Source: an uncultured Candidatus Saccharibacteria bacterium (GTDB lineage Bacteria; Patescibacteriota; Saccharimonadia; Saccharimonadales; CAYUUR01). Taken from it: a stretch of 64,000 nucleotides of DNA. The notes under the pieces are model-generated. The model did not search any database. It was not told the origin of the DNA and saw only the letters and a program-made list of their open reading frames with translations. A program made the translations under genes and the position numbers. Location of the stretch: assembly GCA_964510235.1 (NCBI GenBank), contig CAZEBF010000001.1:13001-77000 (forward strand), written 5' to 3'. Position 1 is the stretch's first letter; each line of letters begins with the position of its first letter. This document shows positions 11,804 through 32,988 of this stretch, piece by piece.

Positions 11804-14800
11804 TTAATTTTTAACCGGCGGTACTGGAACGTCTATCGTCTTGGCATCTTTGACGCTTACCGCGGTCCATGCGAACTCGATATCTTGTGTGGCATCTTCT
11901 GGCAAGATGATAGTAAAGCCTTCTTTAGTTAGATCATCGTAGGCGAACTGGGCGAACTTACCGTTCTTAATGTTCACAGTGACAACAGGCGTGTCATCGT
12001 ACGGTTTCTCAAACTTGATCACCACTTTCTTCTGTGTCTTGTAGATGGTAGCGAAGCCGGCCGCATCGTTGTTCTGGGTCAGACGACCCTCAATCTCGAC
12101 ATCGTTACGGAAGATGACACTATCTACGAAAGTGGCCATGCGGTGGAAGACGCTTGTGTTGAGGAATTCGACCGGTCCAACCACCTTGAGCGCGCCGTTA
12201 GCGAATAATGCGCCTTCTACCGTCAGACTCTCGCCCACTTTGGCGGTCTTGACCACGAAGTCATCCAGATTAACGCTAGCCTCTGTGAGTTCACTGCCGC
12301 CCGCTTCTGTCGCCGCCTTTGGTCGTGATGTCAGCTTACCAACCAACACTTCAAGACCTTCGATCTTATTGGCCTTAATACTGTCAGCGGTGATGTCTTT
12401 GGCATTGATACTGACGCCGTTGATTTCGTACGCGCTGACTCGATCAGTTAAGATCTCAGAGTTGTCTTCTCCTGGGGCTTGCTGCTGCTTGCGGCCAATC
12501 AGGTAACGGATGATGTCATCAGATTTCTTCAGCTTATCGGCCAAAACACCTTCTTGCAGATTCACTAATGGACCAAGCACGGTGTCTGGCATGGTAAAGC
12601 CACCGTTGCCGAACTCTTCCATGGCTACTTCAACTCTCTGACCGTTGTAATCGACCAGATTCACAAAGACCATCACCGTGCCACATCGAGCACCAGCAGG
12701 ACTACCGTCTGGGCAGTCAATGAGCGTCTCCGTGTTAAGATCCTCCAACACAGTACCGACTACCCGACCAGCACCAACTGCTTTCATTCCATAACCAGCA
12801 ACCGTACTTGAAGTGATACGGTCACCGGATTTGATGGACTCGCCTGGTTTGATCAAGACTTTTACCGGTACGCGTCCACTCAATGCAATCGGGTACGAGT
12901 TCTCTTCTTGTGGACCAATAATGAGACCTGGGTTGGTGGCAACAATACCCAGTGTTTTGTCGTCATATGGCTTGCTTGATGGTACTACCTCACCAACCGA
13001 GTTGTCTTGCATGCTCACTATGTCACCCGGAACAAGCGAATCAAACGATGTGAAGCGCTCGGCAAGGTCAGCACCACCAACACCACCAACCTCAGACGAT
13101 ACTCCTGCCATACCATCAACAATCAGCTCACCACGAATCGATGAGATGTTGTTAAAGAATCGGTCCATGTCTTGTTCAAGGTTGCGGTCTGATTTCTCAA
13201 GCCACAGGTTAGCTGAGGATCCCATTACAACGATGCCATTTTCGACAGAAAGTGCGTCAATATCATCGGCATCAGCGCCTGTCCAGCTAGCGCCAGAGCT
13301 ATCGGTTACTCCAGTATCTGAATGGTATACATTCGAGACAAAGGCATTGGCGTAACCACTAAACACGCTGACTGCCCCGCCATCGGTGCCATTACTGGTT
13401 CCTACGTACAGATCGGGGTTTGAGCCCAGGAAGTTCGTGTTATTGAGGCCAATTGACGTCACAATGTTAGTATCACCATAGAGTTTTTCCGGTATGACTT
13501 CGTAGTCTGAATCAGTACTAGGCGTAACTGTCCATGCAGGACTGACAGTTAAAGTCGTGCCATCATTAGCAATAACCCGACGAGATTGTCCTGCACCCGT
13601 GCCGGCTGTTATTTCTACAAAGCTGCCGACGAATGAGTTCGGTACATAGGTTTCAGCCGAATCGCCAATAGTCGTACTACTGAAAGTAGTCGCAGCGGTA
13701 ACAACTGTTGAAGGTTTTGCTAGGGCGCCGCGTCCTTCCAGATAGATCTTTCGAATCTGGGCTTGTGTCAAAGTATCTGATACAGTTGCGCCGCCACCCG
13801 AAAAGTATACATCGTCGATATCGCCATCCCAGAAGTTGCCACCGGCTGCACCACTACCGTCAGCACCAATAGTTAAAATCTGTGATGCGTCTAGCGTCAA
13901 GGTAGCAGCCAAAGCCGTATCGCAGGTACTGGCCTGCTTTCCGTCAATATAGAGACAGAGCCCAGTATCCGTATTGACCGCTGCAACATGGTGCCACTGA
14001 CCATCGTTATACGTTTGTGTCGATGTAACCGAATCGTCATAGGCTGCAGTTGCAGCAGTGTCTTGTATACCGAACACTATGCTACCTGAGGAGTTCATTT
14101 CGACGGTGTAGCCCGCACCTTCAGTTCCACCAAGAGCCGAGAATCGCTTGTCAATCAACACATCCGTTCCCGCGATTGCCGTGGAGTGCCTGAACCATGC
14201 ACTAACACTAAACGACAGTGCTGCTACGTTGAAGTCCGCATCTGTATCACAAGTTCCGTCATTGTTAGCATCTGAACAGAGGAATTGGCTCGTGCCGTTG
14301 AATCTCAGCCCTGTGCCATGAACACCATTAACCCCATAAGTTGGCGCAACTTCTGGCTCAAGTACGCTGTTTCTAATCGTCGAGTCCGTCAAATCACCAG
14401 ATAGGTTGTCGAAACTAAACATACCTCGCTGCGTACCAGTCATGTATGAGGTTTCACGACTTGTGTTGTAGTGTTTTGACCAGCCGATTACCGTACCAGA
14501 CGGAACGTTAACATCGTGAACTTCGGTCAAGCCGGCTGAATGACCAACGTAGAGAAGGTCGGCTGCATCGTCTGCCATTGAGGCACGTTCAACTACTTTG
14601 AGTGCGTCTGGCGCACCGACTGCAAATGTTGGAGCAGCGGCACCATTCGCAACATTCGGCAAGTTGCCGGCGGCTTCATCAAACAAGTCAGATGGAGTCG
14701 CTTGGTCAGCCTTGGCAACGTCAATACCGACCGTTCCATTTGCCTGTGTACCATACCGTTCTACCTGGCTGAGCGTTACATTGAGGCCATACAAACGACC

Positions 14801-17800
14801 ACGTTTAGTGACATACACTGCGCTAAACTGATCAGTTAAGTTATCGCCGTAATCTAATGTTTTTTGCTCTGACAGGTTAACTACAGATATCGAGTCATCT
14901 GTGGCTGCAGCGATGAAGGTTTTTCCGTTACCTGGGCCACCGTTAGTTTCAATACTACTTGATCCATACAAGACCGAACCGTGTACTGCATTTACAGCGT
15001 TGTGCCGGATCGCCAAGGCTGTCCTACTATCAAGGTTGTAGGTCACTGCCGTGTTTCTGTTAGCAATGTTCTTATCGCCTTGGTCGCGGTCGGTTGTATT
15101 GTAGTTGTACATCCTATCTTGGGTAAAGTCGATAGCATACATTCCACCCGCTGAAGCGCCATTAGCACCGACGTAAACTACACCGTTAAGCGCAAACACA
15201 CTCGATGGATCGTTATTGGTGTCAACACCAATTGCGTAGCCAGCTGCGTTCTGGTTGAACTTCATAAACATTTTGTAGTCGTTAGCGTCAAAGATGTAGA
15301 CAGCACTGGTAGTCGATACGATAATAGCTTTCTTTGGGAATCCTGAAGAGCCACAACGAGTATCACTCGCGATGTTACAAGCGTCACCAAATCCATCGTT
15401 CTTTGTCTCAGTGTACCAGCTGAGCGACTGAGACGTTGGTGAATTAGTCCAAGCACCGGTGTCCGAATCTTTAGTAGTGTCATAGACGTGTACATCGGTA
15501 ATGCCGGTCAACCCAGTCTGCTTGGTGATACCCTTCTTGACCAGGTCACCGTACAAGTCAATCTGCCCAGCAGCACTCGCGCTACCAACCTGGAAGGTTC
15601 CGTCAGTTTTGAGTGTGGCGACATCGCTACGATAGAGGGTCGTGTCGCGTGATGAGCCAAAAGCGATACCGGCACTTGCTGTCGTATTATTTGCATTACT
15701 ACTAAGCCACAACGTCTGCGTGTCTGCCGCCTCAATTGCCACACCATAGTCACTAGTACCATTGGTTTGCGCCTCAACGAACACTCCATAGTTTGATGTT
15801 ATCGTAGAAGAGCTGATTGACGCACTTTGTATGTGCAAGCCGTATCCGTCTGTCAGCGTACCACCACCTGTTAGATTAAGGTGTCCCTGCAGTCCTGCTC
15901 CTTCAGTTATTGTACCTCCGAAAAGGAAGGAGGCAACTTCACCACGCACTCCTACCGCCATAGTGACCCCGCCGGTAAGTACCGCACTTGCACCACCCCT
16001 GATACCGTACAGATACTCGGCATTCGTGCCAGTACTAGCCCCGCCTGCAAATGCGTTTATACCGTATGCCGTGGCAGTTCCGGCGCCCGAATTATCAGTG
16101 TTATTCAGTATATCTAGGCCGTAAGAATTGATTGTTCCGCCCGTGGCGCCAGTTCTCGTCACGGCAATGCGCTGACCATAGGTACTATCTGTACCTGTAT
16201 TTACGACTCCTGTGTCGCTGACGGTTACTTTCAGGCTATATTCATCACTGGCAGTAGTATTGGTGCTTGTAAGCGCCGTGTCTATCTCGCCGCTATCAGC
16301 AATAGTTAATACTGCGGTACCATTGTCTTGGACAATGAAGTCGCCCGTGCCTGCCAAGTTAGTGACAACATTGCCCGACCCATTGTTCGTTATCGTATAA
16401 GCTGGGTTATCGGTTGCATCAAGGGTGTAAGTATACGCACCGGCATCGCTGAGTGTCATAAATGCCGTGCCGTTGTCTTGGAACTCGATGTCGCCAGCAC
16501 TCGCTAAGTTGAAAACCACATCCGCAGCGTCAACTGAGGCGGACGTGACCCGCAAAGGTGAGGCCGTCGAGCCAGTCAGTGTCGCCATATCAGTTATAAA
16601 TTGATCTTGTGTGCCGCCACCGGTTGACGCTGCGTTCTCAGTAAATGTAAAGCCACTTTCGGCTGCGGTCAGCTGCCAATTCCACACCACATTGTTGTCG
16701 GCGTTGTTGATACTTGCCCCTGTTGTTGCAGCAGTCACTTGATCAAGACGAGCCCCGCTACCGCCAGCACCACAACCGGCATCAGTCGTGTTACAAACTG
16801 TCTTGACGACGCCGTTTTCTATAATCTTCACCTTGTTGAGCGTTGAGTCATAGAACAAGCCACCATTGAGCGCACTCAAGTTGCTCGTCGGATCAGCTGT
16901 TGCAGCATCGAGCTGTAGAATGGTTGTATCGCTATCAGTGCCAGTTGAGTTGCCAACTTTAACCAAATTACCACCGCTACCACTCCGCGCCGCGGTATCA
17001 ACTTGTAGCACATTAGCTCCAGCACTCTGTACCCGGAAAGCGTCTACCGAAGCTGCCGAAGGATTAAACAACGTATTCCCTGTCGCCCCCACTGAAGCCA
17101 GCACCGTTCCAGCACTATTCTGCCACTCCTGGAGATTGGCGGTTTGGCCAGCAAAACCCTGAACGACGAGGCCTTTACGCCCGACTGCGTTTGAATTGAA
17201 CTGTACCGCTGCAGCATCGTCCGCAGTATTATTGGCATTCACGGTAAGCTTGTTGTTCGTTCCGTAGCTTGTTGCGTTTAAACCAAGCTGACCTCCGTCA
17301 CTAAACCGCATCATCTCAGTGTATGTCGTAGAGCTTCCGTCGAAGCCCCAAGAGAAGTAATTCCCGGAAGTATTACCGTCTTGATCAGCAACGTTGATGA
17401 TATTACCGTTGCTCGTAATTGAACCATAGTTTGAACTATAACCTAGGTTAAGCCTACTCGGATTTCCGCCGTTTCCGATTACTAGCGATGTATCAGTAGC
17501 GGCGCCACCCTGTACTCGAAAACTACCGTCTGTAGTCAGTATGTTGGCAGATGAACGATACAGATTAGTGTCACCGGAAGTACCAAATGTAAATCGTCCG
17601 GCCGACGATCGATTCAACACTTCAGTAAAGCCTTCGCCAAGTCGCAAGGTTGTGCCAGTAGATTCGAGGGCAAGATTGTTCGATATATAAACTAAGCCTC
17701 CGCTTGCGGTTGCAACACGTAGCGCCGAACCGGCCACAGTAAGTGAGTCGTCTGTTCTCAGTAAATCAGCTCCTGATCTATACAAATTCACGTCACCCGT

Positions 17801-20329
17801 ACTACCAAAGGTGAAGCCATCAAGATCTTGTGGGATTGCAACTCGCAAAGTTCTCGTAGCGCTGTTGTTCGGCATAACTTCAAAGCGCAGTTCACTACCA
17901 CCGCTGCCACTGGCAAAATCTTGTGAGGCAAAGGCTGTTATACCAGCCGAGTGATAGGCATTGTTGCTTGCGTCATATGCGCCACCTAGCAGTATGTAGC
18001 CTAAGCGGTCGCCTGAAGAAGTCGCCGCGCCGTCGTCTTGTATGCCGATGATGCCTGAGCCGCCAGTTGATGAAGAGGTGGCGGTCTGAATGAAGGCTGA
18101 CTGTACTGCGCCAGCACCTCTAACTGTTAGGTTGGCGGCGCTCAAGTACTGGTTGCCCGAACCTACCACCAAAGATCCGTCGCTCTTTACACTCCCCAAC
18201 ACAGTGCCAGAGCTATTCTGCCACTCTTGAAGGTTGGCAGTTTGACTGCCTGAACCACGCACAACTAACCCTTTAACATCTGTATTGGTATATACACTCA
18301 GACGCACACCGCTCAGTGGCGTCTGGTTACCAACAGATATCTGTTCGGTGGAAACAATGTCGCCATCAGCGGCAATTGCTGACAATACAGTGCCAGTACT
18401 ACTCTGCCACTCTTGAAGGTTGGCAGTTTGCGAGGCTAAGCCTTGGATTACCAACGGTTTGGCGGTCGTGGCAGAGGCGGTGATTATGGTGTTGGCTAAG
18501 TTGTCTACTGTGGTAGGAGTGTTGACACGTAATTTCTCGTTTGTGCCGCCCGTCAAGGAGTAGGCGCCAAACTGAGCGCCATATGACGAGGTTAGGCGCA
18601 GCTTAACCGAGCCGTTTGAACTGAGGTCAAGGTACTCATTCGCGCTTACGTAGGTTAATACTGTTCGCGCCTGGCCGCTACCGCCAAGTCCGTATAAGAT
18701 TGCTCCGTTACTGCCCACCCAGATTGGCGCGGTTGAGACTAACTGGTTAGATGAGTTCACGCCAAACGTGTAGTCGGCACTATTTGCCGCATTACGCCAG
18801 GCAATATTCTCTGCATTTGCCAGGCGGACAAAACCGGATGAAGCTGGTGTGCCCGTCGACACCAAACCTGGCGCATAAATGTACCCATTAGAAGCAACAC
18901 GCATTAATATCGAACCGGCATCGTTCTGCCATTCCTGGAGGTTGGCGGTTTGGCTGGTGGCACCACGAACCACCAAACCTTTGCTTCCCGCTGTTGAAGA
19001 ACCAATCAAAACTGTTGCATCTTCTGTAGTTGGACTGTTTACTGTCAACCGAGTATTGGTATTAACGGTACCAGTTGTATTGATGGCAAGCCTAGTATTA
19101 AGCTTAACTGCAGCTATCGTGTCAGCGTTTGCCGATAAAGTTGACGAATTACTACCTTGCCACAAGAACTGTATTGAACCACCAAAGTCACTAAACCCAC
19201 CCGAACTCAGAACCAGGCCACTACGATAACTTGCACCAGAATTGTAGTATCCGCCTATCTGGAGCGAGCCGCCGGCCGAACCGCTTGCATCGACCGCATT
19301 CGATAGCCGTAAAACCCCTGCGCTGAAGCGATTAAGGACTGCGTCACTGGCACTACCAAAGCGAATAGCGCCACTTGAGCTAACTGAAGTTAGTACCGCG
19401 CCCGTGCTATCCTGCCATTCCTGGAGGTTGGCGGTTTGGCCAGATGCACCCTGTACGCTTAAACCAGCGAAGCTTGCATCTGTACTAGTAACCTGCAAAC
19501 TTGCAGTTGGCGCAGGACTGTTAACCCCAACACGCTTATTTGACGTATCAACGCTAAATATCGTTGATAATCCTGTCGCATTCTTAACTTGTACCGCAGT
19601 AACCGAGTCTGTCTGTGGCTTAAATAATAGGTACCCTGCGTTATCTAGGACGAGCACGTCACTGCCTCCACGCTGTAACTTAAGTATGTCTCCTGTGGCG
19701 CCTGTCTTATTAATGCCGATTGAACCATTAGTCGTCGAATCAACCTGCAAGGAAGCCTGTCCAAGCTGAATCAGCTCATCCTTGGATAGGCCACCAAGTT
19801 TTTTTGCATTCTTTGCGTATGGGGTGGCGCTAAATCTAGTAAACGGCAACATTTCACCATCCCATGACGGACTGGCCGTTCCGCCTACGTCAATTGAGAG
19901 CCATAGGGTGTCTTGATTCCAGTCAACATCATTACCAAAGGGAGTTACCGACCCGAGGTATACTGAAAAATAACCGTTCTTAACCCTAACTTTGTCAGTG
20001 CTGACCCGAGTCTCAGTCCACTCAAGCGTACCGCTACAAGGTGAAGTACCTGATACTTCACAACCATCACCATCCTGATATACCTTAAATCGCAAATTAT
20101 AGAAGCCATCTGGCACAACTGCACCTGTATCATCTAGTAATCGAGCCTGGAAGTTCAACTGCTCGTTAATACCTGCAGAATTAACGGTCTGCCCCTGTTG
20201 CTGTGAGCGATAAAAACCAATCACACCAGATATAAACATGAGCCCTATGGCGCACAGGATGAGTGGATTCCAGAAATTGACTCTTACTCTCATTTGTTCT
20301 CTATGTGTATTAAGTAACCTTAACCACAT
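11804..20329 (-). CDS. Giant 2841-aa cell-surface protein. N-terminal signal/anchor, five QTANLQEWQ-containing repeat modules, a LamG/concanavalin-like domain, and a beta-rich, Gly/Thr/Ser-rich body.
   Basis: One uninterrupted ORF. The N-terminal hydrophobic segment is LILCAIGLMFISGVIGFY. The GLVV(R/Q)G..(S/G)QTANLQEWQxxxGxVL module occurs five times. FSVSAWFRHS...GxWHHVAAV resembles a LamG domain. Confidence 0.8.
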   Translation of the reverse strand: MWLRLLNTHREQMRVRVNFWNPLILCAIGLMFISGVIGFYRSQQQGQTVNSAGINEQLNFQARLLDDTGAVVPDGFYNLRFKVYQDGDGCEVSGTSPCSGTLEWTETRVSTDKVRVKNGYFSVYLGSVTPFGNDVDWNQDTLWLSIDVGGTASPSWDGEMLPFTRFSATPYAKNAKKLGGLSKDELIQLGQASLQVDSTTNGSIGINKTGATGDILKLQRGGSDVLVLDNAGYLLFKPQTDSVTAVQVKNATGLSTIFSVDTSNKRVGVNSPAPTASLQVTSTDASFAGLSVQGASGQTANLQEWQDSTGAVLTSVSSSGAIRFGSASDAVLNRFSAGVLRLSNAVDASGSAGGSLQIGGYYNSGASYRSGLVLSSGGFSDFGGSIQFLWQGSNSSTLSANADTIAAVKLNTRLAINTTGTVNTNTRLTVNSPTTEDATVLIGSSTAGSKGLVVRGATSQTANLQEWQNDAGSILMRVASNGYIYAPGLVSTGTPASSGFVRLANAENIAWRNAANSADYTFGVNSSNQLVSTAPIWVGSNGAILYGLGGSGQARTVLTYVSANEYLDLSSNGSVKLRLTSSYGAQFGAYSLTGGTNEKLRVNTPTTVDNLANTIITASATTAKPLVIQGLASQTANLQEWQSSTGTVLSAIAADGDIVSTEQISVGNQTPLSGVRLSVYTNTDVKGLVVRGSGSQTANLQEWQNSSGTVLGSVKSDGSLVVGSGNQYLSAANLTVRGAGAVQSAFIQTATSSSTGGSGIIGIQDDGAATSSGDRLGYILLGGAYDASNNAYHSAGITAFASQDFASGSGGSELRFEVMPNNSATRTLRVAIPQDLDGFTFGSTGDVNLYRSGADLLRTDDSLTVAGSALRVATASGGLVYISNNLALESTGTTLRLGEGFTEVLNRSSAGRFTFGTSGDTNLYRSSANILTTDGSFRVQGGAATDTSLVIGNGGNPSRLNLGYSSNYGSITSNGNIINVADQDGNTSGNYFSWGFDGSSTTYTEMMRFSDGGQLGLNATSYGTNNKLTVNANNTADDAAAVQFNSNAVGRKGLVVQGFAGQTANLQEWQNSAGTVLASVGATGNTLFNPSAASVDAFRVQSAGANVLQVDTAARSGSGGNLVKVGNSTGTDSDTTILQLDAATADPTSNLSALNGGLFYDSTLNKVKIIENGVVKTVCNTTDAGCGAGGSGARLDQVTAATTGASINNADNNVVWNWQLTAAESGFTFTENAASTGGGTQDQFITDMATLTGSTASPLRVTSASVDAADVVFNLASAGDIEFQDNGTAFMTLSDAGAYTYTLDATDNPAYTITNNGSGNVVTNLAGTGDFIVQDNGTAVLTIADSGEIDTALTSTNTTASDEYSLKVTVSDTGVVNTGTDSTYGQRIAVTRTGATGGTINSYGLDILNNTDNSGAGTATAYGINAFAGGASTGTNAEYLYGIRGGASAVLTGGVTMAVGVRGEVASFLFGGTITEGAGLQGHLNLTGGGTLTDGYGLHIQSASISSSTITSNYGVFVEAQTNGTSDYGVAIEAADTQTLWLSSNANNTTASAGIAFGSSRDTTLYRSDVATLKTDGTFQVGSASAAGQIDLYGDLVKKGITKQTGLTGITDVHVYDTTKDSDTGAWTNSPTSQSLSWYTETKNDGFGDACNIASDTRCGSSGFPKKAIIVSTTSAVYIFDANDYKMFMKFNQNAAGYAIGVDTNNDPSSVFALNGVVYVGANGASAGGMYAIDFTQDRMYNYNTTDRDQGDKNIANRNTAVTYNLDSRTALAIRHNAVNAVHGSVLYGSSSIETNGGPGNGKTFIAAATDDSISVVNLSEQKTLDYGDNLTDQFSAVYVTKRGRLYGLNVTLSQVERYGTQANGTVGIDVAKADQATPSDLFDEAAGNLPNVANGAAAPTFAVGAPDALKVVERASMADDAADLLYVGHSAGLTEVHDVNVPSGTVIGWSKHYNTSRETSYMTGTQRGMFSFDNLSGDLTDSTIRNSVLEPEVAPTYGVNGVHGTGLRFNGTSQFLCSDANNDGTCDTDADFNVAALSFSVSAWFRHSTAIAGTDVLIDKRFSALGGTEGAGYTVEMNSSGSIVFGIQDTAATAAYDDSVTSTQTYNDGQWHHVAAVNTDTGLCLYIDGKQASTCDTALAATLTLDASQILTIGADGSGAAGGNFWDGDIDDVYFSGGGATVSDTLTQAQIRKIYLEGRGALAKPSTVVTAATTFSSTTIGDSAETYVPNSFVGSFVEITAGTGAGQSRRVIANDGTTLTVSPAWTVTPSTDSDYEVIPEKLYGDTNIVTSIGLNNTNFLGSNPDLYVGTSNGTDGGAVSVFSGYANAFVSNVYHSDTGVTDSSGASWTGADADDIDALSVENGIVVMGSSANLWLEKSDRNLEQDMDRFFNNISSIRGELIVDGMAGVSSEVGGVGGADLAERFTSFDSLVPGDIVSMQDNSVGEVVPSSKPYDDKTLGIVATNPGLIIGPQEENSYPIALSGRVPVKVLIKPGESIKSGDRITSSTVAGYGMKAVGAGRVVGTVLEDLNTETLIDCPDGSPAGARCGTVMVFVNLVDYNGQRVEVAMEEFGNGGFTMPDTVLGPLVNLQEGVLADKLKKSDDIIRYLIGRKQQQAPGEDNSEILTDRVSAYEINGVSINAKDITADSIKANKIEGLEVLVGKLTSRPKAATEAGGSELTEASVNLDDFVVKTAKVGESLTVEGALFANGALKVVGPVEFLNTSVFHRMATFVDSVIFRNDVEIEGRLTQNNDAAGFATIYKTQKKVVIKFEKPYDDTPVVTVNIKNGKFAQFAYDDLTKEGFTIILPEDATQDIEFAWTAVSVKDAKTIDVPVPPVKN

Positions 20330-20449: not shown

Positions 20450-21604
20450 CTAGTGAACAGCTTTTTTATTAATCGAGTGGATAGCGACTCGTTCTCCGAG
20501 CCAAAAGCACAGTGTTAGAATACTAACGACGACAAAGACCGGGTAGGCCCGGTTCACACCATCTACAAGTTGGTTCTGGAATATACAGACTGCGTCTTGT
20601 TGGCAACGCTGAGATAGTGTGCCTGTTGATGACAGGTTAACTTCTTTAACTCCATCTACGATCACAACTGTCTGAAAGATCACTTTAGATCCATTGATAT
20701 CGGTTACTTCAATGATGACACGGTACTGGCCAGGTTTATCATATTGACGCGTCAAAGTGTACTCACCCGCCTCATCATAGACTCGTGTAGTTTGCCGTCC
20801 ATCACCCCACCTGATAAGTACGCTGTATGGACCCTGCCCACCAACAATGGTAAACGAAACACGAGCTTCCTTCTTAACCTGATCAACCCGGAAGTAGCCT
20901 TTAGAGGTCACCAGTAGGTCGGCTGGAGCTTGACCCACTGTACCGGTATTTGGCGGATTTGGACTATTAGTACCAGGTGTTTGTGGGTCAGTCGGGTTCA
21001 AAACTGGCGCGTCGTAAAATACTGTAGTGGTAGTGGAGTCTGGACCGTACTGGCTAATCACATCTCGAGTTCTTGCCACCAACGCATTGCTACCAGTGAT
21101 TAGTGTCACTATCAGGCTAAATGTCCCTGTGGGGCTACACACTACTGAACCAGCTAAATCACCGTTGCGATACAACTCTACAATAAAATCATGGTCACAG
21201 GTTCCCTCTATGGTTACAGTGTTGGCAGTAAATTGCTGTCCGTTAATCGGCTGCTGGATTACAGCAGGTACTGATGGAGGTGAACCAGGCACCAGTCCTG
21301 ACAACTGAATATCTCCAGATTCGGTAGCACCCTGAACAACAGTGTGTCGCACGAACATCAGGCAGCCCATCGTAAACAGTATCAAAAAAAAGATGAGTGC
21401 ATACGAAGTCTGGTGATACGGTAATCGCTTACCAGTGTGAGTATGATGGCTGTAGTGAACCGGCCTACGCTTAGGGTGTGGGTGAGCTTTGGCATGACGC
21501 ACCTGGCTAGTTGAAGCCGTTCGAGATTTATTTCTTCGTGCTACCATTGTTCTTCGAGCGACCTTGCGCCTTCTTAACAATGTAGCGATTGTAGCGTCGG
21601 ACAA
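20450..21604 (-). CDS. Membrane protein with a long basic cytoplasmic N-terminus and an Ig-like/beta-sandwich-looking ectodomain.
   Basis: An Arg/Lys/His-rich N-terminus is followed by a TM helix (YALIFFLILFTMGCLMFV) and a Thr/Pro/Gly-rich extracellular region. It overlaps the upstream gene, so the true start is probably internal. Confidence 0.45.
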   Translation of the reverse strand: MSDATIATLLRRRKVARRTMVARRNKSRTASTSQVRHAKAHPHPKRRPVHYSHHTHTGKRLPYHQTSYALIFFLILFTMGCLMFVRHTVVQGATESGDIQLSGLVPGSPPSVPAVIQQPINGQQFTANTVTIEGTCDHDFIVELYRNGDLAGSVVCSPTGTFSLIVTLITGSNALVARTRDVISQYGPDSTTTTVFYDAPVLNPTDPQTPGTNSPNPPNTGTVGQAPADLLVTSKGYFRVDQVKKEARVSFTIVGGQGPYSVLIRWGDGRQTTRVYDEAGEYTLTRQYDKPGQYRVIIEVTDINGSKVIFQTVVIVDGVKEVNLSSTGTLSQRCQQDAVCIFQNQLVDGVNRAYPVFVVVSILTLCFWLGERVAIHSINKKAVH

Positions 21605-22526
21605 AGAATACGATCAGAACGATGGCTAGAATAACCAGAGCAATTAACTTATACGGTATTACCCAGAAAGTTATGGAATCAGATACGATAGTATTTCTCT
21701 CTCCATATACAACATCAGCCTGAACAGTATATCGACCAAACAGTAACTTATCGCTCAGTTCTTGTTCGAACTTTCGTGTACTACCTGGCAAGACGTTACC
21801 GCCATTTTCGTTAAGAGCGAAAGTTGTTACTTCACGTCCGAACATATTGCTTACCCTGATCGAACCAGTTGGTTTAAAGAATACGTTACCTGTGTTTGTG
21901 ATTCGCTCAGCAATTGTAACTGGTCCATATTCAAACATATTCCTTTTCTTACCGTTCTGTGCTGTATACATTTCACTTATGACAGCCTGCTCCGTTGTAT
22001 CACCTGATACATTCACAAGCATAAGAGTACCGACACTTGCTGATAATGAGACTCCTGTGTCTTCAAGTTCAGGTGGTGTGCCTGTAAACCGAATAACCCC
22101 AAAGTGACCACCTGGACTGGCATTGTCAGGAACGCGCAACGTTACCTTGACTGACTTTTGCTCACCCTTTTTTAGCGTTATTGCTGGAATTGAAACGATC
22201 CAAGATTTGATTGAATATGGACTTTCCTCTTCCGCATCTAACAGCAGCTTTGGTTGACCATCTTCACCGTTAGCTACAAAGTCATTAATCTGTGACTTTA
22301 TTACGAGAGTATCCTGTGTGACATTGCGAACACGGATAGTAGAATTGATTACCTTGCCTGGATCTGCTTTTAATTCAATCAGAGGAGGCGAAATCTCCAA
22401 CCCCTGTCCACTTTGGCCATGCGCAATATCGGGCGTTATAAACATAAGCAACAAGATAGAAGCACTTGCAACAATACTCAACACTCTCTTCATATCAGTT
22501 GATGTCCCTCTTCCCCAAACTCTCAT
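21528..22526 (-). CDS. DUF916/CscA-like cell-surface protein with a signal peptide and a C-terminal TM anchor.
   Basis: The likely true start is MKRVLSIVASASILLLMFITPDIAHGQ, near 22493. The C-terminus is LIALVILAIVLIVFFV followed by the basic tail RRYNRYIVKK...KK. The overall layout matches DUF916 proteins. Confidence 0.4.
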   Translation of the reverse strand: MRVWGRGTSTDMKRVLSIVASASILLLMFITPDIAHGQSGQGLEISPPLIELKADPGKVINSTIRVRNVTQDTLVIKSQINDFVANGEDGQPKLLLDAEEESPYSIKSWIVSIPAITLKKGEQKSVKVTLRVPDNASPGGHFGVIRFTGTPPELEDTGVSLSASVGTLMLVNVSGDTTEQAVISEMYTAQNGKKRNMFEYGPVTIAERITNTGNVFFKPTGSIRVSNMFGREVTTFALNENGGNVLPGSTRKFEQELSDKLLFGRYTVQADVVYGERNTIVSDSITFWVIPYKLIALVILAIVLIVFFVRRYNRYIVKKAQGRSKNNGSTKK

Positions 22527-22548
22527 TGGTAACAGTATATCAGATTAA

Positions 22549-23625
22549 CTAGAACGTTGCGGTTGCAATGTATGTCATTGTCGCAGTATACGTACCGGCC
22601 TCCGTTGCAGTATCGATATTAGCAATGTAGGCTACCTGATAACGACGAAATGACTCAGACGTGCCCTTGCTCGCAACACTATCAGCCGTAACAAACCGGA
22701 ACTGATCGACAGTGTTATAGCTCGCTGCTGGCGTACCCGAGCCCGCACCGTCAGGGTCGGCACCAATATTCGGTGTAGCGTTGTCGCGCAGGTTCATTCC
22801 GAACTGCTCAGTTCCTGTTGTTGACGCAGTTTGAGACGCAAGTGCCGAAATAGTATTACCACCCGAAGTAAGCGTTGCTCCATTAACAGTAATCGCATAG
22901 CCACTTCCCCCGTTTGTACCTACACCCATCTGCGACAAACCAGTACCAGTAGTGCTTGCAGTTAGCGTTCCGAGAGCCACGGCGGAACCGGTCGCACCAG
23001 CACAGCTACTTGTTGTAATGCCACTCGTACCGGTACAAAAAGTAAGCGTCTCGTCAACAGTGGCGCTCACAGTGATTTGTTGGGCTGTACTTGCAGCGAC
23101 GGTACCGGTATCAACTGCTGTTGTCCAGGCGGCGTCAGAAAAAGTACTAATACGTGCGAAGAATGTGGTGTTTTGAGCTGTAGGGTTGGTGACTCCGCCA
23201 AAGACAACAGTCTGAGATCCGGTTGGCGCTGCAACGTTACCGCTCTTCGATATACGCAGACTGCCTGCGGTTACAGTACTCACCGTCCAACCGGAGGCGT
23301 CACCAAGGTTGGTTGGCTGTGAGGCGAGTGTTGAGCTAGAGTTAACAAAACCTGATGGAATGGAACATGCTCCCGAGGCAGTCGTACAAATCTGGGCTTG
23401 CATTGATTGGATTACAGTAGCGGAAGGTACAGTAAAATTAAACGTATAGGTAACGCCCGTGCCTGCACCGGCGGAATTAGAGAGAGTCAACTTGCGAGCG
23501 GTTATTTGAGCTGCTGAAACCTGAGCATTAAAGACAGACTGTAACGCAACCATCGCCAAGACAATGGCGATTACTATATAGGTTATTCGTTGGACTTTCT
23601 GCTGTGTCTGTGCAAATTTGGACAT
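22549..23625 (-). CDS. Secreted Thr/Ser/Gly/Ala-rich surface protein, paralogue A.
   Basis: It has a signal peptide. Its C-terminal block TEQFGMNL..N..P...YNT..FRFV...YIANIDTATEAGTYTATMTYIATATF is shared with the next gene. Confidence 0.5.
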   Translation of the reverse strand: MSKFAQTQQKVQRITYIVIAIVLAMVALQSVFNAQVSAAQITARKLTLSNSAGAGTGVTYTFNFTVPSATVIQSMQAQICTTASGACSIPSGFVNSSSTLASQPTNLGDASGWTVSTVTAGSLRISKSGNVAAPTGSQTVVFGGVTNPTAQNTTFFARISTFSDAAWTTAVDTGTVAASTAQQITVSATVDETLTFCTGTSGITTSSCAGATGSAVALGTLTASTTGTGLSQMGVGTNGGSGYAITVNGATLTSGGNTISALASQTASTTGTEQFGMNLRDNATPNIGADPDGAGSGTPAASYNTVDQFRFVTADSVASKGTSESFRRYQVAYIANIDTATEAGTYTATMTYIATATF

Positions 23626-23691
23626 GTTTGATTGTTACCTTAAGTGCTTTGCTAAATTGTACAATACATCATAAGCATAAACAACGACTTT

Positions 23692-24432
23692 CTAATATGT
23701 TCCTGTGCAAACAAGCGTCTGATTACCACTGTAACTTCCGCCTGCAGTGGTGTTAGCAGCGTTAATAATATACGACATAGTGTACTCGGTTAAGCCAGAG
23801 CTCGCTGCCGCTGAGGCTATCGTTTCACCTGCGACATACCGAAAGTTGTTGGCCGTATTGTAGTTACCCGCGGCTGTACCGGATGAAAAACTACTATCTG
23901 GCGTCTGTACAGGGTTGGCGCCAAACGTTGTTGGCGAAGTGTTAGCAACGAGATTAACACCAAACTGCTCAGTACCGGGCACCGATGGCCCAGTTGAGCT
24001 CATGCCGGCCAACGTATAGACACCTGTACTGGGCGGATTGCCGACTATTTGCACGATATATCCGTATGACGTGTAATTCAGGACACTAAATGTTGCGGTT
24101 GCAGTGGCCGTAACGGAGGTAGAAAGAGCACCAAAGTTGACATTCGCCGTGTCGACCGTACAGCTCAGTGATGGATCATTAGTAGTCACCGGGCCACTAT
24201 CAGCCCTGAAGTTTGTCGAGCCACTTGGCCCACCGCCAACGCCGTTAACTGCTTGCTGACCGGGGGCTGTACCGTAATTAGTAGAAGAACTTTCTAGGCT
24301 TCCACCCGGTCCAATAAAGGATTCGTCTATCTTAAAGTTGCTCGATGAACTCTGGGCAGACGCCAGGGTGCCACCAAAACAGAGCATAGAAACCACCAAG
24401 CAAACCCCTTCTAGAATCTTTCTCATGTACAA
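23692..24432 (-). CDS. Secreted Thr/Ser/Gly-rich surface protein, paralogue B.
   Basis: It has the signal peptide MRKILEGVCLVVSMLCFGGTLASAQ. Its C-terminal block TEQFGVNL...YNTANNFRYV...YIINAAN...GSYSGNQTLVCTGTY aligns with paralogue A. Confidence 0.5.
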   Translation of the reverse strand: MYMRKILEGVCLVVSMLCFGGTLASAQSSSSNFKIDESFIGPGGSLESSSTNYGTAPGQQAVNGVGGGPSGSTNFRADSGPVTTNDPSLSCTVDTANVNFGALSTSVTATATATFSVLNYTSYGYIVQIVGNPPSTGVYTLAGMSSTGPSVPGTEQFGVNLVANTSPTTFGANPVQTPDSSFSSGTAAGNYNTANNFRYVAGETIASAAASSGLTEYTMSYIINAANTTAGGSYSGNQTLVCTGTY

Positions 24433-24485: not shown

Positions 24486-25577
24486 CTAGTTAACGCTAAT
24501 GTAGACGCGGGCAGCTTGCTTATCTTTGAGGTCGTTGATATAGGTTTCGAGATTTTTGAAGTTAAAGACAACGTGCGCACCTTCGACTTTGTCTTCGTTC
24601 TTACTGATGGTCTTTACAATTTCCAGGCTATAACCAGTGTTAATAATCCCTGAGGTCTCGCCAGCATTGAGTCGAAACAGTGCATCCGTCGTCTGAGCAT
24701 TAATATCGCGATTTGACCGATCAATAGCAAAACCAAATGTACCACCGCGTGCTTTGCTAACCTCATCCTCTGAGTACTGTCGGGCTACGTCCTCAAACTT
24801 ACTACCATTTGTTAACAGCGCCAAAGCCTTCTCGGCGCGAGCCTGAGTGTCGGTATCAATCGCGGCTATGACTTTTTGCTCCAACAACCGTTGCTTGATA
24901 ACACGGCGAAAATCATCTACGGACCAGCCGAAGTTTTGCTTAAGCGCTTCCTCGTAGGCCTGTTCACTACCACCTAAACGGTTTTGACGTCGGAGCAGTG
25001 TAATCTGGTCTTCTACCTCTGTATTGCTGACACTAACATTGTTCTGTTTGGCCAATTCTTTGACGTAGGCATCATTAACTACCTTATCTATGGCTCGTTT
25101 TTTGTACTCCGCAAGCTGCTGTTGACCGGCTTCGGAGTTAAAGTCGAGCTTCTGTTGATTCTCATAGAAATAGATGTAGTGACGTAGTTCAAACAGATAG
25201 TTCTCGTAGGCCACAAAGCGTGAGCCGGTCTTGGCAATTGGGAACGGCACTACTTGTGTGACACGATACATAAAGCTCGATGTTGTCTCGAATCGATACA
25301 AGGCTGCTACTGAATAACTGAGGAAAATCACCGCTGCGGCGATAATGAGAGCAGTCGATATCATTACAATACGGTGTTTGGAATGCTGCAGTGGATATAT
25401 ATACTTACGGGCACTTCCTAGAACCTCTTCGCGGTGAGCGGCAACTGTCTCGTTTGTAATAGGACCTGACTTTGGAGCGTCAGGCGTCGACTTTTTGCGA
25501 TTCAGTATCTTCTTAATTTTCTTCTTCATAATCCTCTTCTTGGACGTCGTCATCTTGCAAATAGGTTTCCACCCCAT
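24486..25577 (-). CDS. Parvulin-type peptidyl-prolyl isomerase, PrsA/SurA-like and membrane-anchored.
   Basis: It has an N-terminal TM helix, a SurA-N-like domain and a PpiC rotamase block (GGTFGFAIDRS...). Confidence 0.65.
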   Translation of the reverse strand: MGWKPICKMTTSKKRIMKKKIKKILNRKKSTPDAPKSGPITNETVAAHREEVLGSARKYIYPLQHSKHRIVMISTALIIAAAVIFLSYSVAALYRFETTSSFMYRVTQVVPFPIAKTGSRFVAYENYLFELRHYIYFYENQQKLDFNSEAGQQQLAEYKKRAIDKVVNDAYVKELAKQNNVSVSNTEVEDQITLLRRQNRLGGSEQAYEEALKQNFGWSVDDFRRVIKQRLLEQKVIAAIDTDTQARAEKALALLTNGSKFEDVARQYSEDEVSKARGGTFGFAIDRSNRDINAQTTDALFRLNAGETSGIINTGYSLEIVKTISKNEDKVEGAHVVFNFKNLETYINDLKDKQAARVYISVN

Positions 25578-26932: not shown

Positions 26933-27862
26933 ATGTTGTTTACCAAAGCCAAAACTGATTTTCTGGAGTACCTAGAGATAGAGCAGAACCGCTCACAGAA
27001 AACTATCGCTAATTATGATCACTACCTAACAAGACTAAGTGACTACGCTGGCGACGACATCAAAGTGGCCGATATCGACCCCGAGATGATTCGCAAATGG
27101 CGACTATGGCTGAACCGACTTGGCACCAATACTAGCGACGAGCTACAAAAGACAACTCAGAATTATCACCTAATCGCACTAAGGAGCTTTCTGAAGTTTT
27201 GCTCCAAACGCGACATCCCTGCTCTGTCAGCTGACAAGATTGAGCTAGCGCGCACCGTTCGCAAACAAGTCACATTTCTAAACGCTGACGAAGTACTGAG
27301 ACTCTTCGAACAAACTGACACATCTACACTTGGCGGCCTTCGTGACCGAGCAATTTTGGAATTGCTCTTCTCTAGCGGCTTGCGTGTGTCTGAGCTGGTT
27401 GGCCTCAATCGTGATCATGTAAACCTCAAACGCCGAGAGTTCATGGTGCGCGGTAAAGGACAGAAAGACCGCCCAATATTCATAAGCCCACTGGCGGCTG
27501 AATGGATCCAAAAATACCTTGATGCTCGCCAGGATACTGCACAAGCATTGTTTATCCGCCACGGTAAAGGTGGCGCCAGGACTGTCGACACCAGTGGAAA
27601 CTACAATCGACTGACCGCCCGTAGCATCCAGCGCATGGTGGCCCGCTATGCCCTGCTGGCAGGCATCACTAAGCATGTTTCACCCCATACGTTACGCCAC
27701 AGTTTTGCGACTGATCTGCTGATGAACGGGGCTGATTTACGCTCTGTGCAGGCCTTGTTAGGCCACAGCAACATCGCCACTACCCAGATCTACACCCACG
27801 TAACCGACCCACATCTCAAATCGGTTCACGAAAAGTTTCACCGCCACGGCGACGACGCCTAA
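26933..27862 (+). CDS. Tyrosine site-specific recombinase, XerC/XerD family.
   Basis: It has an N-terminal core-binding domain. The C-terminal catalytic region is HTLRHSFATDLLMNGADLRSVQALLGHSNIATTQIYTHV, which supplies the R..HxxR..Y residues. Confidence 0.8.
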   Translation: MLFTKAKTDFLEYLEIEQNRSQKTIANYDHYLTRLSDYAGDDIKVADIDPEMIRKWRLWLNRLGTNTSDELQKTTQNYHLIALRSFLKFCSKRDIPALSADKIELARTVRKQVTFLNADEVLRLFEQTDTSTLGGLRDRAILELLFSSGLRVSELVGLNRDHVNLKRREFMVRGKGQKDRPIFISPLAAEWIQKYLDARQDTAQALFIRHGKGGARTVDTSGNYNRLTARSIQRMVARYALLAGITKHVSPHTLRHSFATDLLMNGADLRSVQALLGHSNIATTQIYTHVTDPHLKSVHEKFHRHGDDA

Positions 27863-28950
27863 GGGTTACAGGCTGCTTGTTGAGCAGCGCTTTGAGCTGG
27901 CGTAAGAGTGATGTTTGGCTCGTTAGCGCTATTAACATCATTAACCGACTCTCCGGGTAGTGTATAGAATCTTTTACATAGTGTCGTAAAAGTTTGTAGC
28001 GCGTACTCCGGGAAGACTGCACCAGCGTTGGTGAGCGGCACGTTTACTTGAACACGACGCACCACGTCAGCCGCCTTACCAGTCACATCTATCTTAGCCT
28101 GACCATTCTTAAGCTCCTGAACCTGTCCGTCATCAGCGAACGACTGCACCAGTATGCTGGATGGGCTGTAGATGGCTTTAAGCCTAATGTAATACGAGCT
28201 TCGAGTGAGTCCTGTTAAACGCACCTTACAGAAAGGCTCACGAGAGACATTGCAATTACCATTCACAAACAAGCCTTGTTGTCCGGGAGTTGGTGTTACA
28301 GCCGGAACTGGTTGCGAGGTAGTTCCATTACCGGCATTTGGATACAAGAACGCTTGGTACGTATCGGTAATTTGCTGATTACGCGAAGGGACGTCAGGTA
28401 TCAGCATCAGACGTACAACGCCTGTCGTATCGCCCCATCGATTCTCTGGAGTAAGTAAGTGCGTCGGCGACCAAGTAGGGTCTGCAAAACGAGCATCTGT
28501 GGGACGTTGATCTGGCACCTGCCAGTTAATTTCAAGATTACGTACTGGTTGTCCATTAGCAGTCTCGACTTTCATTACCCATGAGGCACCATCAGGGTCA
28601 ATTCTTGTCTGTAATCCGGTCGGCGTGACATCCATAAGTACGCAGGTAAACGATACATTATTGCCTAAGCTTGCTTGATCCATAATTCCAACTTGTGGGG
28701 TATCTTCACAACTGTCAACATCGCTCAGTGTTGCTAGATTGCCATCTATGTAATCACGCGCCACGTTCACACCACTCTCCGCTGCATAAAACGCTTGGGT
28801 GCTCAGCTGTTGATCCAGAGCTTGCCTTTGCTCACGACGCATCAGTGTGGCAAAACCAACGATGATAAGCGTCACGATTCCGAGAATGATAAGCGTAACA
28901 GTGATGGCTGCCAGGCCTGACTCATTACGACGTAAAGTTGTCTGAGACAT
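27859..28950 (-). CDS. Type IV pilus minor pilin/assembly protein, PilX-like.
   Basis: The N-terminus has a TM helix plus the QAFYAAESG motif typical of PilX. It is the last gene of the pilus cluster. Confidence 0.55.
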   Translation of the reverse strand: MSQTTLRRNESGLAAITVTLIILGIVTLIIVGFATLMRREQRQALDQQLSTQAFYAAESGVNVARDYIDGNLATLSDVDSCEDTPQVGIMDQASLGNNVSFTCVLMDVTPTGLQTRIDPDGASWVMKVETANGQPVRNLEINWQVPDQRPTDARFADPTWSPTHLLTPENRWGDTTGVVRLMLIPDVPSRNQQITDTYQAFLYPNAGNGTTSQPVPAVTPTPGQQGLFVNGNCNVSREPFCKVRLTGLTRSSYYIRLKAIYSPSSILVQSFADDGQVQELKNGQAKIDVTGKAADVVRRVQVNVPLTNAGAVFPEYALQTFTTLCKRFYTLPGESVNDVNSANEPNITLTPAQSAAQQAACNP

Positions 28951-29696
28951 TAGTTTGTTCTCCTATAGACTGTTGTTTGTAATTCTGAGGTAGCGCACCA
29001 TTGAGCACCCAAACCAACGCCTGTACAGCGAGCGGTCAAACTGTCACCTGAGCCGCTAAACTCAATCAACTCGTCATCCTGGCCGTACACTACACCAACC
29101 GCAAAACTAGCTAAAGCGTTACTGTCTTGGGGTACTCGTAACCGGTACAAACGCATACCCTCACCTAGCATCTCTCGCCCATTCGAACCCTGCACACCAC
29201 TGGGCAAATCTTCGCGTGGCTCACAAAGTGGACCAGCTTCGTTCTCATCACGCCACATGGCATTTTTGACATAGTTCTCACTGTTGCTACCAGGCTGATA
29301 AAAATTAACGTCTGGGTTCACTTGACCATTAATGATGTAGCTATAACGAACTTTACCGATACAAAAGGCATTAACCTGCACAGGCCCCTGTGCCCCTGGT
29401 ACCGTCCGGGCAGCCCCAACCGATACTTTTTCGGAGGTAAACTGCAGAGTACGACCAATATCATCAGTGATTGTTCTGGTGGTTTCTTGGGTACGAGAAC
29501 TAACGACTCCCTTGTAGTACAGGCGTCCAATCTGCACTAGCATGCTGGCAGCCAGTAATAGTAAAACTGAGAAAACCACAGTAGATATCATCAACTCTAG
29601 GACGGTAAATCCCGACTGGTTTTTGTGCATACTGCTCATTCGTAGCTCCTGTACACCATCTGTAATTGCTCTTTGCCGCCACCAATGCGATCCCAC
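28950..29696 (-). CDS. Type IV minor pilin, PilW-like.
   Basis: The prepilin-like N-terminus GFTVLELMISTVVFSVLLLLAA sits behind a longer leader. Confidence 0.5.
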   Translation of the reverse strand: MGSHWWRQRAITDGVQELRMSSMHKNQSGFTVLELMISTVVFSVLLLLAASMLVQIGRLYYKGVVSSRTQETTRTITDDIGRTLQFTSEKVSVGAARTVPGAQGPVQVNAFCIGKVRYSYIINGQVNPDVNFYQPGSNSENYVKNAMWRDENEAGPLCEPREDLPSGVQGSNGREMLGEGMRLYRLRVPQDSNALASFAVGVVYGQDDELIEFSGSGDSLTARCTGVGLGAQWCATSELQTTVYRRTN

Positions 29697-30085
29697 CGAA
29701 CGTTAATCGTATACGTTGAGCCCTGTTTGACGATGAAGACATTATGAAAGCCGGAGTTTCTGCCGGTACATGCTGCCGGGTACCCAGCAAAAGTGTCAGC
29801 AATATACGAAGCCGGTGGCACGCTAGCAGACCAAGTTACAGCTGCATTAGTGCCAGCCAGACAAAAAGGACTTCCCGCGGTTACGCCAGTAACACCGGCT
29901 TTGATAGTTTCAACTTGGCTCTCGGCTAGCTTGGTGGCTTCGGCCCGCTCTTGCGCCTGCCGACTGTTACGAAGGGCCGCATTCACAATACTATAGGCAC
30001 CACCGATCACCATGCTCAGAACGGCCAGACTAATCAAGACTTCCACGATTGTATCGCCCCTGTTGTTGGATTGTATGCGCATCAT
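29636..30085 (-). CDS. Type IV minor pilin, PilV-like.
   Basis: The N-terminus RGDTIVEVLISLAVLSMVIGG is a class III signal-like segment. Confidence 0.5.
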   Translation of the reverse strand: MMRIQSNNRGDTIVEVLISLAVLSMVIGGAYSIVNAALRNSRQAQERAEATKLAESQVETIKAGVTGVTAGSPFCLAGTNAAVTWSASVPPASYIADTFAGYPAACTGRNSGFHNVFIVKQGSTYTINVRWDRIGGGKEQLQMVYRSYE

Positions 30086-30909
30086 GGATTACACCCCAAT
30101 GGTACTGAATCAACTATCAGCCGTGTGTTGATACCAGATGCTTGCTCAGTGATCTCAAGGGCAGCCTGGCGTGCGTTCGCGTTTGTGTCATTACGGAAAC
30201 AAACCGTCGCAGAAGAGATTCTGTTGCTCTCTCTGATAGCCCCAATAGCCGTGTCAAAGTTGGCAATCGTCTGACCAACAGGGCCAGTTACTCCGTATAA
30301 ACCTGCCGTTTGTGAACCAGCTATTGGATCACCACCGCTGCCAAATGAGCCCAGACTTGTTATAAATGCTATCCCACTGAGAGAGTTATTGGCTTGGTCG
30401 AATACTCGCTTCACCCCTAGCCCATAGCCAAAGGTAAATGGCGTTACATACGGAGAGTTATTAGGAGCGGCGACTGGCTTGGCATCATCCAGACTGTCAA
30501 CATCTGCTCCACCTGCAGTACGATTGCCAGCAATTGTCACAGTACGTGCACCGGTACAATTATTACTACAGCCGGCTTCACTGGGCCCAAACTGAATAGC
30601 TTTGCCCAAGAAAATGCAGTCTTCGTTGGTTCCCTGTTCTTGAGCAGCACCAGCCGCTCTAATCTCTGGTGGCTGGTTGGCAACTGCACTACATCGCCAT
30701 GCGGTTGTTTCTGGAAAAAAGCCACTCGTAACGTCATTGGCAACATCAGTGATACGTGAGTCGGCGTCCCTGGTACCTTGCGTAAATCGGGTACGTTCTT
30801 GCTGGCCATAAAAAGCCGTCACCGCAATAACGAACATGGCGCCGGTCACCGCCAGCACAATCATCGACTCAATAATGGTAAATCCCCCAGCCTGGGCACG
30901 GCGTTTCAT
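30082..30909 (-). CDS. Type IV minor pilin, FimT/PilE-like.
   Basis: The N-terminus is GGFTIIESMIVLAVTGAMFVIAVTAF. Confidence 0.5.
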   Translation of the reverse strand: MKRRAQAGGFTIIESMIVLAVTGAMFVIAVTAFYGQQERTRFTQGTRDADSRITDVANDVTSGFFPETTAWRCSAVANQPPEIRAAGAAQEQGTNEDCIFLGKAIQFGPSEAGCSNNCTGARTVTIAGNRTAGGADVDSLDDAKPVAAPNNSPYVTPFTFGYGLGVKRVFDQANNSLSGIAFITSLGSFGSGGDPIAGSQTAGLYGVTGPVGQTIANFDTAIGAIRESNRISSATVCFRNDTNANARQAALEITEQASGINTRLIVDSVPLGCNP

Positions 30910-30968
30910 ACCCTCAAGTATAGCATAAGCGTTATTGCAGTCGACGCATTTTTACAGATATACACACA

Positions 30969-31799: not shown

Positions 31800-31812
31800 T
31801 TACCCTATCATA

Positions 31813-31842: not shown

Positions 31843-31860
31843 ATTGAATGCTAGGCTATC

Positions 31861-32957: not shown

Positions 32958-32988
32958 TTAGTGCCCATCCTATTTTTAAACATTAGCT

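Follow-up and report, generated by a model that had tools for sequence, protein, structure and literature searches.

Pam pili were named in a 2026 electron cryomicroscopy (cryo-EM) preprint on two filaments of Candidatus Mycosynbacter amalyticus, which describes donor-strand-exchange pili that are specific to bacteria of the Candidate Phyla Radiation (CPR) and are built without an usher (bioRxiv 10.64898/2026.03.03.709456). The M. amalyticus pilins PamA and PamB each contain a nine-strand beta-sandwich N-terminal domain, a single linker strand, and a truncated immunoglobulin (Ig)-like C-terminal domain. This C-terminal domain accepts the linker of the neighbouring subunit, and the resulting linear fibres are seen by cryo-EM as long filaments (bioRxiv 10.64898/2026.03.03.709456). 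AlphaFold-based proposals in the same preprint cast PamC and PamD as transmembrane-anchored, PapD/FimC-like chaperones, PamT as a single-domain tip pilin, and PamR as a transmembrane-anchored, RbmA-like terminator and anchor. The preprint also reports conserved ATP synthase genes, as well as a ‘tail fibre-like protein’, as Pam neighbours, takes in Saccharimonadia in its own survey, and makes no mention of WxL, DUF916 or Csc (bioRxiv 10.64898/2026.03.03.709456). Here we describe four co-directional genes in a 64,000-nucleotide stretch of DNA from an uncultured Candidatus Saccharibacteria bacterium (contig CAZEBF010000001.1, positions 13,001–77,000; hereafter the window). We consider it highly probable that these genes form a minimal pam operon of a Saccharimonadia bacterium, encoding a chaperone-assisted, usher-less pilus assembled by donor-strand exchange.

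Two further systems bear on the interpretation of this locus. Csc/WxL clusters of Bacillota encode CscA/WxLIP (DUF916, DUF3324 and a transmembrane helix), small and large WxL proteins, and an LPXTG protein. The WxL domain (PF13731) is C-terminal, has dual W-x-L motifs, and occurs in at least two proteins of a cluster. A hairpin strand of WxLIP was predicted to complete the beta-sandwich of WxL (PMC10599100), and a WxLIP strand does so in the crystal structure of a WxLIP–WxL complex (9i25). Such strand insertion is the same principle as donor-strand complementation by chaperones. Chaperone–usher pili (Pap/Fim, Caf1, Csu, CFA/I) resemble Pam pili in that their chaperones have the two-domain, Ig-like fold, their subunits offer an incomplete Ig-like domain as acceptor, and they assemble through donor-strand complementation and exchange. 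Pam pili differ from them in having neither an outer membrane nor an usher, in tethering the chaperone by a transmembrane helix, and in using the inter-domain linker, rather than an N-terminal extension, as donor strand. Moreover, Pam subunits have two domains, their fibre is linear rather than coiled, and in the present cluster no PapD or usher match is found at the sequence level.

Both candidate pilins of the window belong to Pam families. We assigned families with the June 2026 release of NCBIfam and its per-model bit-score cutoffs. The 246-aa protein matches NF058579 (CPR_pilus_PamT) with 283 bits (equivalog cutoff 240; E 1.7e-84) over profile positions 8–241 of 241, and both it and the 358-aa protein match NF058581 (Pam_pilin_C), with 157.6 and 169.1 bits, respectively (cutoff 55). 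The two proteins have a C-terminal block in common (36% identity over 123 aa; BLASTP E 9e-19), a likeness far beyond chance that identifies them, at the level of sequence, as true paralogues. Thr, Ser and Gly together make up 39–40% of each protein, and hydropathy places a signal-type hydrophobic segment at both N-termini (residues 5–25 in PamT). A preliminary description of the locus had recognized two secreted, Thr/Ser/Gly-rich paralogues with a common C-terminal block, and these data bear it out.

The 358-aa protein has the architecture of a two-domain shaft pilin. Its signal peptide extends to about VSA/AQ (residues 37–39). In the AlphaFold2 model (predicted local distance difference test score, pLDDT, 91.6), DSSP assigns nine strands between residues 42 and 179, which form a beta-sandwich N-terminal domain, a strand at 194–199, and the strands of the C-terminal domain at 227–356. 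The conserved linker strand (∼182–199, QQITVSATVDETLTF) is the putative donor strand and precedes an acceptor C-terminal domain at ∼212–358. There are two conserved Cys pairs, 80/87 and 197/208, and in the alignment of the pilin family the linker and C-terminal domain hold many invariant or nearly invariant columns. This order of N-terminal domain, linker strand and C-terminal domain is the arrangement that the preprint gives for Pam pilins. A sequence search of our copy of the PDB, which lacks the deposited PamA and PamB models, found no solved Pam proteins.

PamT lacks the N-terminal sandwich domain; it consists of a signal peptide, a Gly/Ser-rich N-terminal region, and one Pam pilin C-terminal domain. 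The mature N-terminus (residues ∼27–90) is rich in Gly and Ser over ∼65 aa and contains the S-x-N-[FY] motif three times (SSNF, STNY and STNF). Lying ahead of the acceptor domain, this stretch could form a tip region that is adhesive or flexible.

The 332-aa protein combines features of Pam chaperones and of WxLIP. Hydropathy indicates a signal segment and a C-terminal transmembrane segment (283–314), which is followed by a Lys/Arg tail, RRYNRYIVKKAQGRSKNNGSTKK. The protein matches Pfam PF06030 (DUF916/WxLIP_PGBD) with 29.5 bits, above the gathering score of 27.3; many members of its family carry PF06030, under the NCBI name ‘DUF916 domain-containing protein’. With hhalign, its probability of homology to Enterococcus mundtii WxLIP is 94.5% over the first (DUF916) domain only, with the conserved N-terminal motifs aligned. 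The corresponding values are 97.9% for a Clavibacter DUF916 protein, over both domains and the C-terminal transmembrane region, and 96.7% for a Deinococcus DUF916 protein, over both domains. In the predicted model (pLDDT 83.5), two beta-sandwich (Ig-like) domains are followed by a long helix at the C-terminus. Over both domains, the model best matches the structures of E. faecium WxLIP (9i1y, 9i25), and it also matches the chaperone–usher chaperones SafB, FimC, CfaA, Caf1M and CsuC. Because it passes the Pfam DUF916/WxLIP_PGBD threshold and has two-domain structural matches to WxLIP and to chaperones, the 332-aa protein is a DUF916/CscA-type (WxLIP) protein. The preliminary description had proposed this on the basis of the signal peptide, C-terminal helix and basic tail. 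The second domain of WxLIP, DUF3324 (PF11797), gives no match in the protein at E ≤ 1; a second Ig-like domain exists structurally. The likeness to PapD-like chaperones is at the fold level only, and no PapD or usher Pfam matches occur in the cluster or its neighbours. The combination of a PapD/FimC-like chaperone fold with a C-terminal transmembrane helix is that of the Pam chaperones.

The fourth protein, of 384 aa, matches NF058578 (CPR_pilus_PamR) with 199.8 bits (E 4.3e-59) over profile positions 8–294 of 297; the equivalog cutoff of this model is 300. By this profile match it is a PamR homologue, though not at the equivalog level. It had been described as a basic-tailed protein with a transmembrane helix. 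The basic tail is present at the N-terminus, and hydropathy indicates two transmembrane segments (65–90 and 352–375) rather than one. Weak Pfam matches are to Glucodextran_B, PKD_4 and Big. The ectodomain starts with a conserved strand, GDIQLSGLV (SGSVxLxGxVPGPPP in the consensus of 68 loci), and continues with two Ig/FnIII/PKD-like domains; it has no relationship to the pilin, chaperone or WxL profiles.

The basic N-terminal segment of PamR carries a His-rich motif, HHxH(T/S)G(R/K)xLPxHxTSY, directly before the first transmembrane segment in most of the 68 loci. In the window it lies at 21400–21450 (residues ∼52–68 of the ORF). Automatic PamR gene calls (306 aa) begin downstream of the motif and would miss it, and the NCBIfam PamR profile seems to start after it. 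The motif could be a metal-binding, sorting or regulatory element.

The cluster is conserved as a unit. We searched 79 loci, obtained from a scan of GTDB species representatives that did not include M. amalyticus, with the window proteins by tblastn. Nearly all of these loci are from Saccharibacteria or Saccharimonadales metagenome-assembled genomes (MAGs), and the closest are Candidatus Saccharibacteria MAGs. A pilin is present upstream of the chaperone in 76 of the 79 loci; 75 have a PamT-like ORF upstream of the pilins and chaperone, and in 72 PamR lies immediately downstream of the chaperone. Most loci keep PamT, pilin(s), chaperone, PamR and giant protein in this order on one strand. The four genes co-occur strongly, which the preliminary description had named as a check of its proposal. 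The number of genes with a Pam C-terminal domain ranges from one to five per locus, three being the commonest, and the two-gene form seen here occurs in 19 of 76 loci. In a database clustered at 90% identity, the chaperone family has ∼1400 and the pilin family at least 1800 members, the named ones being from Candidatus Saccharibacteria.

The coordinates of the cluster and its flanking genes are collected in Table 1, in window numbering; lengths were first taken from the longest mechanically called open reading frames (ORFs). All four genes lie where the preliminary description had placed them, as do the two neighbours that it had named, a 2841-aa protein and a PrsA-like foldase.

Table 1. Genes of the pam cluster and its immediate flanks in the window
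Feature	Coordinates	Strand	Length	Identified by
PamT-type tip pilin	23692-24432	minus	246 aa	
Two-domain Pam shaft pilin	22549-23625	minus	358 aa	
PapD-like / WxLIP-like (DUF916) putative Pam chaperone (PamC/PamD type)	21528-22526	minus	332 aa	
PamR-like anchor or terminator	20450-21604	minus	384 aa	
Giant N-terminally anchored surface protein, after PamR	11804-20329	minus	2841 aa	
Membrane-anchored PrsA/SurA-type peptidyl-prolyl isomerase, upstream of PamT	24486-25577	minus		Pfam

The mechanical starts are probably too far upstream for the chaperone, PamT and PamR. Since homologue alignments and the positions of the NCBIfam matches indicate over-extension of the chaperone and PamT, the true starts are likely M12 (22493) for the chaperone and M3 (24426) or later for PamT. 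PamR likely starts at the ATG at 21547, giving a protein of 365 aa. The chaperone and PamR frames overlap (21528–21604), by 77 nt with the longest ORF and by 20 nt with the likely PamR ATG. The overlap is similar in the closest relative among the 79 loci, and this arrangement of the frames suggests that the two genes are translationally coupled. Scans for promoters and terminators between 11.7 and 27 kb gave chance-level counts and did not inform the operon boundaries.

The giant protein that follows PamR is linked to the cluster by its N-terminus. A module at aa ∼50–250 (window 19580–20182), beside the N-terminal transmembrane anchor, occurs directly after PamR in 65–66 of the 79 loci with ∼50% identity by tblastn. 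Outside this module the protein is hypervariable, and its middle is kept only in the closest relatives. Broad conservation at aa ∼50–250 only thus indicates a cluster-linked N-terminal module that precedes a variable, adhesin-like body. Pfam identifies a Laminin_G_3 (ConA-like) domain at aa 2029–2177 (E 4.6e-18), a search of NCBIfam with the giant protein gave no match, and the N-terminal module has no similarity to the pilin, chaperone, PamR or WxL profiles. The giant protein is probably the ‘tail fibre-like protein’ of the Pam preprint.

On the other side, the rotamase gene upstream of PamT (Pfam Rotamase_3, E 9e-13, Rotamase and SurA_N_3; N-terminal anchor, with a transmembrane segment at 67–96 by hydropathy) is context outside the conserved core. 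PrsA, a bPH-domain protein, NDK and XerC/D lie beside the cluster in 16–18 of the 79 loci (PrsA in 18), all of them close relatives. In the window, a XerC/D-like recombinase (26933–27862, plus strand), NDK and the bPH-domain protein separate the PamT side from a type IV pilus gene cluster (27859–39820, minus strand) that lies ∼3.4 kb upstream of PamT. This cluster encodes a PilX_N protein, two N_methyl pilins, an A24 prepilin peptidase, PilC (T2SSF), ATPases of PilT-like and PilB-like type, and PilM. The window thus carries genes for two distinct filament systems next to each other. The window also encodes two Beta-lactamase2 (class-A beta-lactamase-fold) proteins with N-terminal anchors (10859–11803, plus strand; 46995–48740, minus strand). 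The first of these genes lies on the strand opposite to the giant gene and borders its 3′ end; 4 of the 79 loci have a homologue in this position.

Compared with the M. amalyticus system, the locus has in common a PamT that passes the equivalog cutoff, the Pam_pilin_C domain in each of the paralogues, a transmembrane-anchored PamR homologue, the pilin architecture, a transmembrane-anchored PapD-like chaperone, the CPR/Saccharimonadia lineage, and a giant ‘tail fibre-like’ neighbour. It differs in encoding one shaft pilin and one chaperone, where M. amalyticus has PamA, PamB and PamE together with PamC and PamD, and in a PamR that scores below the equivalog cutoff. Upstream of PamT, the type IV pilus cluster, XerC/D, NDK and PrsA stand in place of the ATP synthase genes, which were not found among the annotated ORFs of the window. 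Filaments were seen by cryo-EM in M. amalyticus, whereas here the pilus is predicted from genes and structure models. The system has already been named and characterized structurally in a relative, and the window holds another, minimal member. The preliminary description had suggested an undescribed non-covalent surface or adhesion complex; the idea of a non-covalent surface assembly stands, whereas ‘undescribed’ does not, given the published Pam operon and its NCBIfam models NF058578, NF058579 and NF058581.

From family membership, folds, topology and conserved synteny, with structures modelled as single chains, we infer the roles of chaperone, tip and terminator in the window organism and an order of assembly. 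All four proteins would be exported by Sec. The membrane-anchored 332-aa protein, kept on the outer side of the cytoplasmic membrane by the helix at its C-terminus, would use one of its own strands to cap the open, Ig-like C-terminal domain of pilins that have just been secreted. PamT, which offers a C-terminal domain only, would start the fibre as its distal acceptor, and copies of the 358-aa pilin would add in turn, the linker strand of each entering the C-terminal domain of the subunit before it. Growth would end when the N-terminal strand of PamR (∼365 aa) enters the last pilin, tying the fibre to the membrane. The giant protein, with its cluster-linked N-terminal module, would probably be a co-functioning adhesin. 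A likely role of the pilus is contact with a host or prey in an epibiotic lifestyle.

Several points weigh against this reading. The roles of chaperone, tip and terminator are AlphaFold-based even in the preprint, which is not peer-reviewed (bioRxiv 10.64898/2026.03.03.709456). M. amalyticus has three shaft pilins and two chaperones, this operon a single one of each, and its PamR scores 199.8 bits against an equivalog cutoff of 300. Finally, WxLIP, which among solved structures is the nearest relative of the chaperone, has been read as a stable partner at the surface and not as a chaperone of assembly.

The alternative that the preliminary description had favoured is a Csc/WxL-type non-covalent complex at the cell surface. 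In such a complex, the DUF916 protein would be a permanent, WxLIP-like scaffold that holds the small and the large secreted paralogue at the envelope by strand insertion and so presents adhesive domains, with no long polymer. The 332-aa protein lends itself to this role: it belongs to the DUF916/WxLIP_PGBD family with a score above the gathering threshold, aligns with Enterococcus WxLIP with a conserved N-terminal motif at the equivalent position, finds its best two-domain structural matches in WxLIP (9i1y, 9i25), and has two Ig-like domains and a C-terminal transmembrane helix. The cluster also follows a parallel four-part logic: one client is small and consists of the domain alone, the other is larger and has N-terminal domains as well, their two-domain partner is transmembrane-anchored, and the fourth protein is anchored too. 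The clients argue otherwise. They carry Pam_pilin_C, and the proposal that their C-terminus echoes the WxL motif failed: neither has Trp at either motif position, and neither matches PF13731 (WxL), which is absent from all 44 members of the pilin family even at E ≤ 10. We also compared the Pam pilin and C-terminal domain profiles with WxL profiles (small-WxL, 40–120 sequences, plus the large-WxL C-terminus). The hhalign probability is 0.3–0.5%, whereas in a positive control the WxL profile recovers a divergent large-WxL domain with 98.8% probability. The alignment was limited to the final beta-strand (YTATMTYIATAT versus YTSTLTWELTTT) and was not significant. With no Pfam matches in 44 members and hhalign values below 0.5% despite a working control, we reject WxL membership of the paralogues. 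Thus, of the Pfam families to which the preliminary description pointed, DUF916 was found and DUF3324 and WxL were not. The fourth protein is membrane-anchored and none of the four contains an LPXTG motif, unlike the small LPXTG/sortase-anchored protein that is frequent, though not obligatory, in Csc/WxL clusters, and homologous pilins form long filaments by cryo-EM. Since the DUF916 component is common to both systems, which work on related principles, and the paralogues are not WxL proteins, the cluster is a member of the Pam system, which builds filaments and no wall-bound complex of the Csc type, and not of the Csc/WxL family; we regard a Csc/WxL complex as improbable.

It is also conceivable that the locus is a non-filamentous envelope layer, S-layer-like or a matrix scaffold, with PamR and the 332-aa protein as RbmA-like matrix linkers. 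The RbmA matches have a low template-modelling score (0.24) and cover essentially one domain, and the pilin family keeps the linker and C-terminal domain that make up the donor-strand interface of the filaments seen by cryo-EM, so that we consider this reading very unlikely. Least credible is a misread classical pilus, either of the chaperone–usher type with an outer-membrane usher or of the sortase type with the sortase encoded elsewhere in the genome. Neither the ORF sequences nor the Pfam scans of the cluster and its neighbours show an usher, a sortase or an LPXTG motif. Saccharibacteria have no outer membrane, and the 332-aa protein is anchored by a transmembrane helix, unlike periplasmic PapD-type chaperones, whose Pfam families it does not match.

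With the Pam pilus as the preferred reading, its DUF916 component raises a wider question. The DUF916/WxLIP superfamily comprises 10,952 clusters at 50% identity (E ≤ 1e-3). We tentatively raise the possibility, which we think unlikely on balance, that Pam chaperones are members of this superfamily rather than merely convergent with PapD, and that Pam, Csc/WxL and the uncharacterized DUF916 clusters of Actinomycetota and Deinococcus diverged from a single ancient design of monoderms. In this design a membrane-tethered, two-domain chaperone may complete the incomplete beta-sandwich of its secreted clients by strand insertion. If so, donor-strand complementation or exchange would also assemble WxL/Csc complexes, possibly into short fibres anchored through the N-terminal strand of the LPXTG protein, and the Pam chaperone could stay in the mature structure. 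The Pam–WxLIP link is the only point that goes beyond the published description; it may be new, and would be a modest addition.

Three plasmid loci provide further material for comparison. In a canonical WxL locus of E. mundtii (L080; pLDW-8, 4608–5772), the LPXTG and small WxL proteins have an N-terminal segment in common (45.8% by hhalign, across 49 columns), and EF0750_LPXTG, an NCBIfam model, matches the N-terminus of the WxL protein (E 1.3e-5). By analogy, this likeness recalls the Pam model, in which the N-terminal strand of the anchor would mimic the donor strand of the pilin. DUF916-type proteins are also encoded on plasmid pCCh of Clavibacter phaseoli (L081; 5101–6915) and on a plasmid of Deinococcus sp. 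(L082; 4848–7259). The small secreted neighbours of these two genes, sought as bridging families, match neither the Pam C-terminal domain nor WxL, which suggests further uncharacterized client families for the DUF916 chaperone-like superfamily.

It is thought that CPR bacteria living as epibionts or parasites use Pam pili to make first contact with their hosts. The stripped-down operon of the window, which consists of PamT, a single shaft pilin, a single chaperone and PamR and precedes the gene of the giant, adhesin-like protein, is one common form in Saccharimonadia, and its simplicity makes it a candidate for reconstitution. Membership of the chaperone in DUF916/WxLIP would link the CPR pilus to the Csc/WxL surface clusters of enterococci and lactic acid bacteria, which have long been enigmatic, and suggests a testable strand-complementation mechanism that may be common to monoderm phyla.

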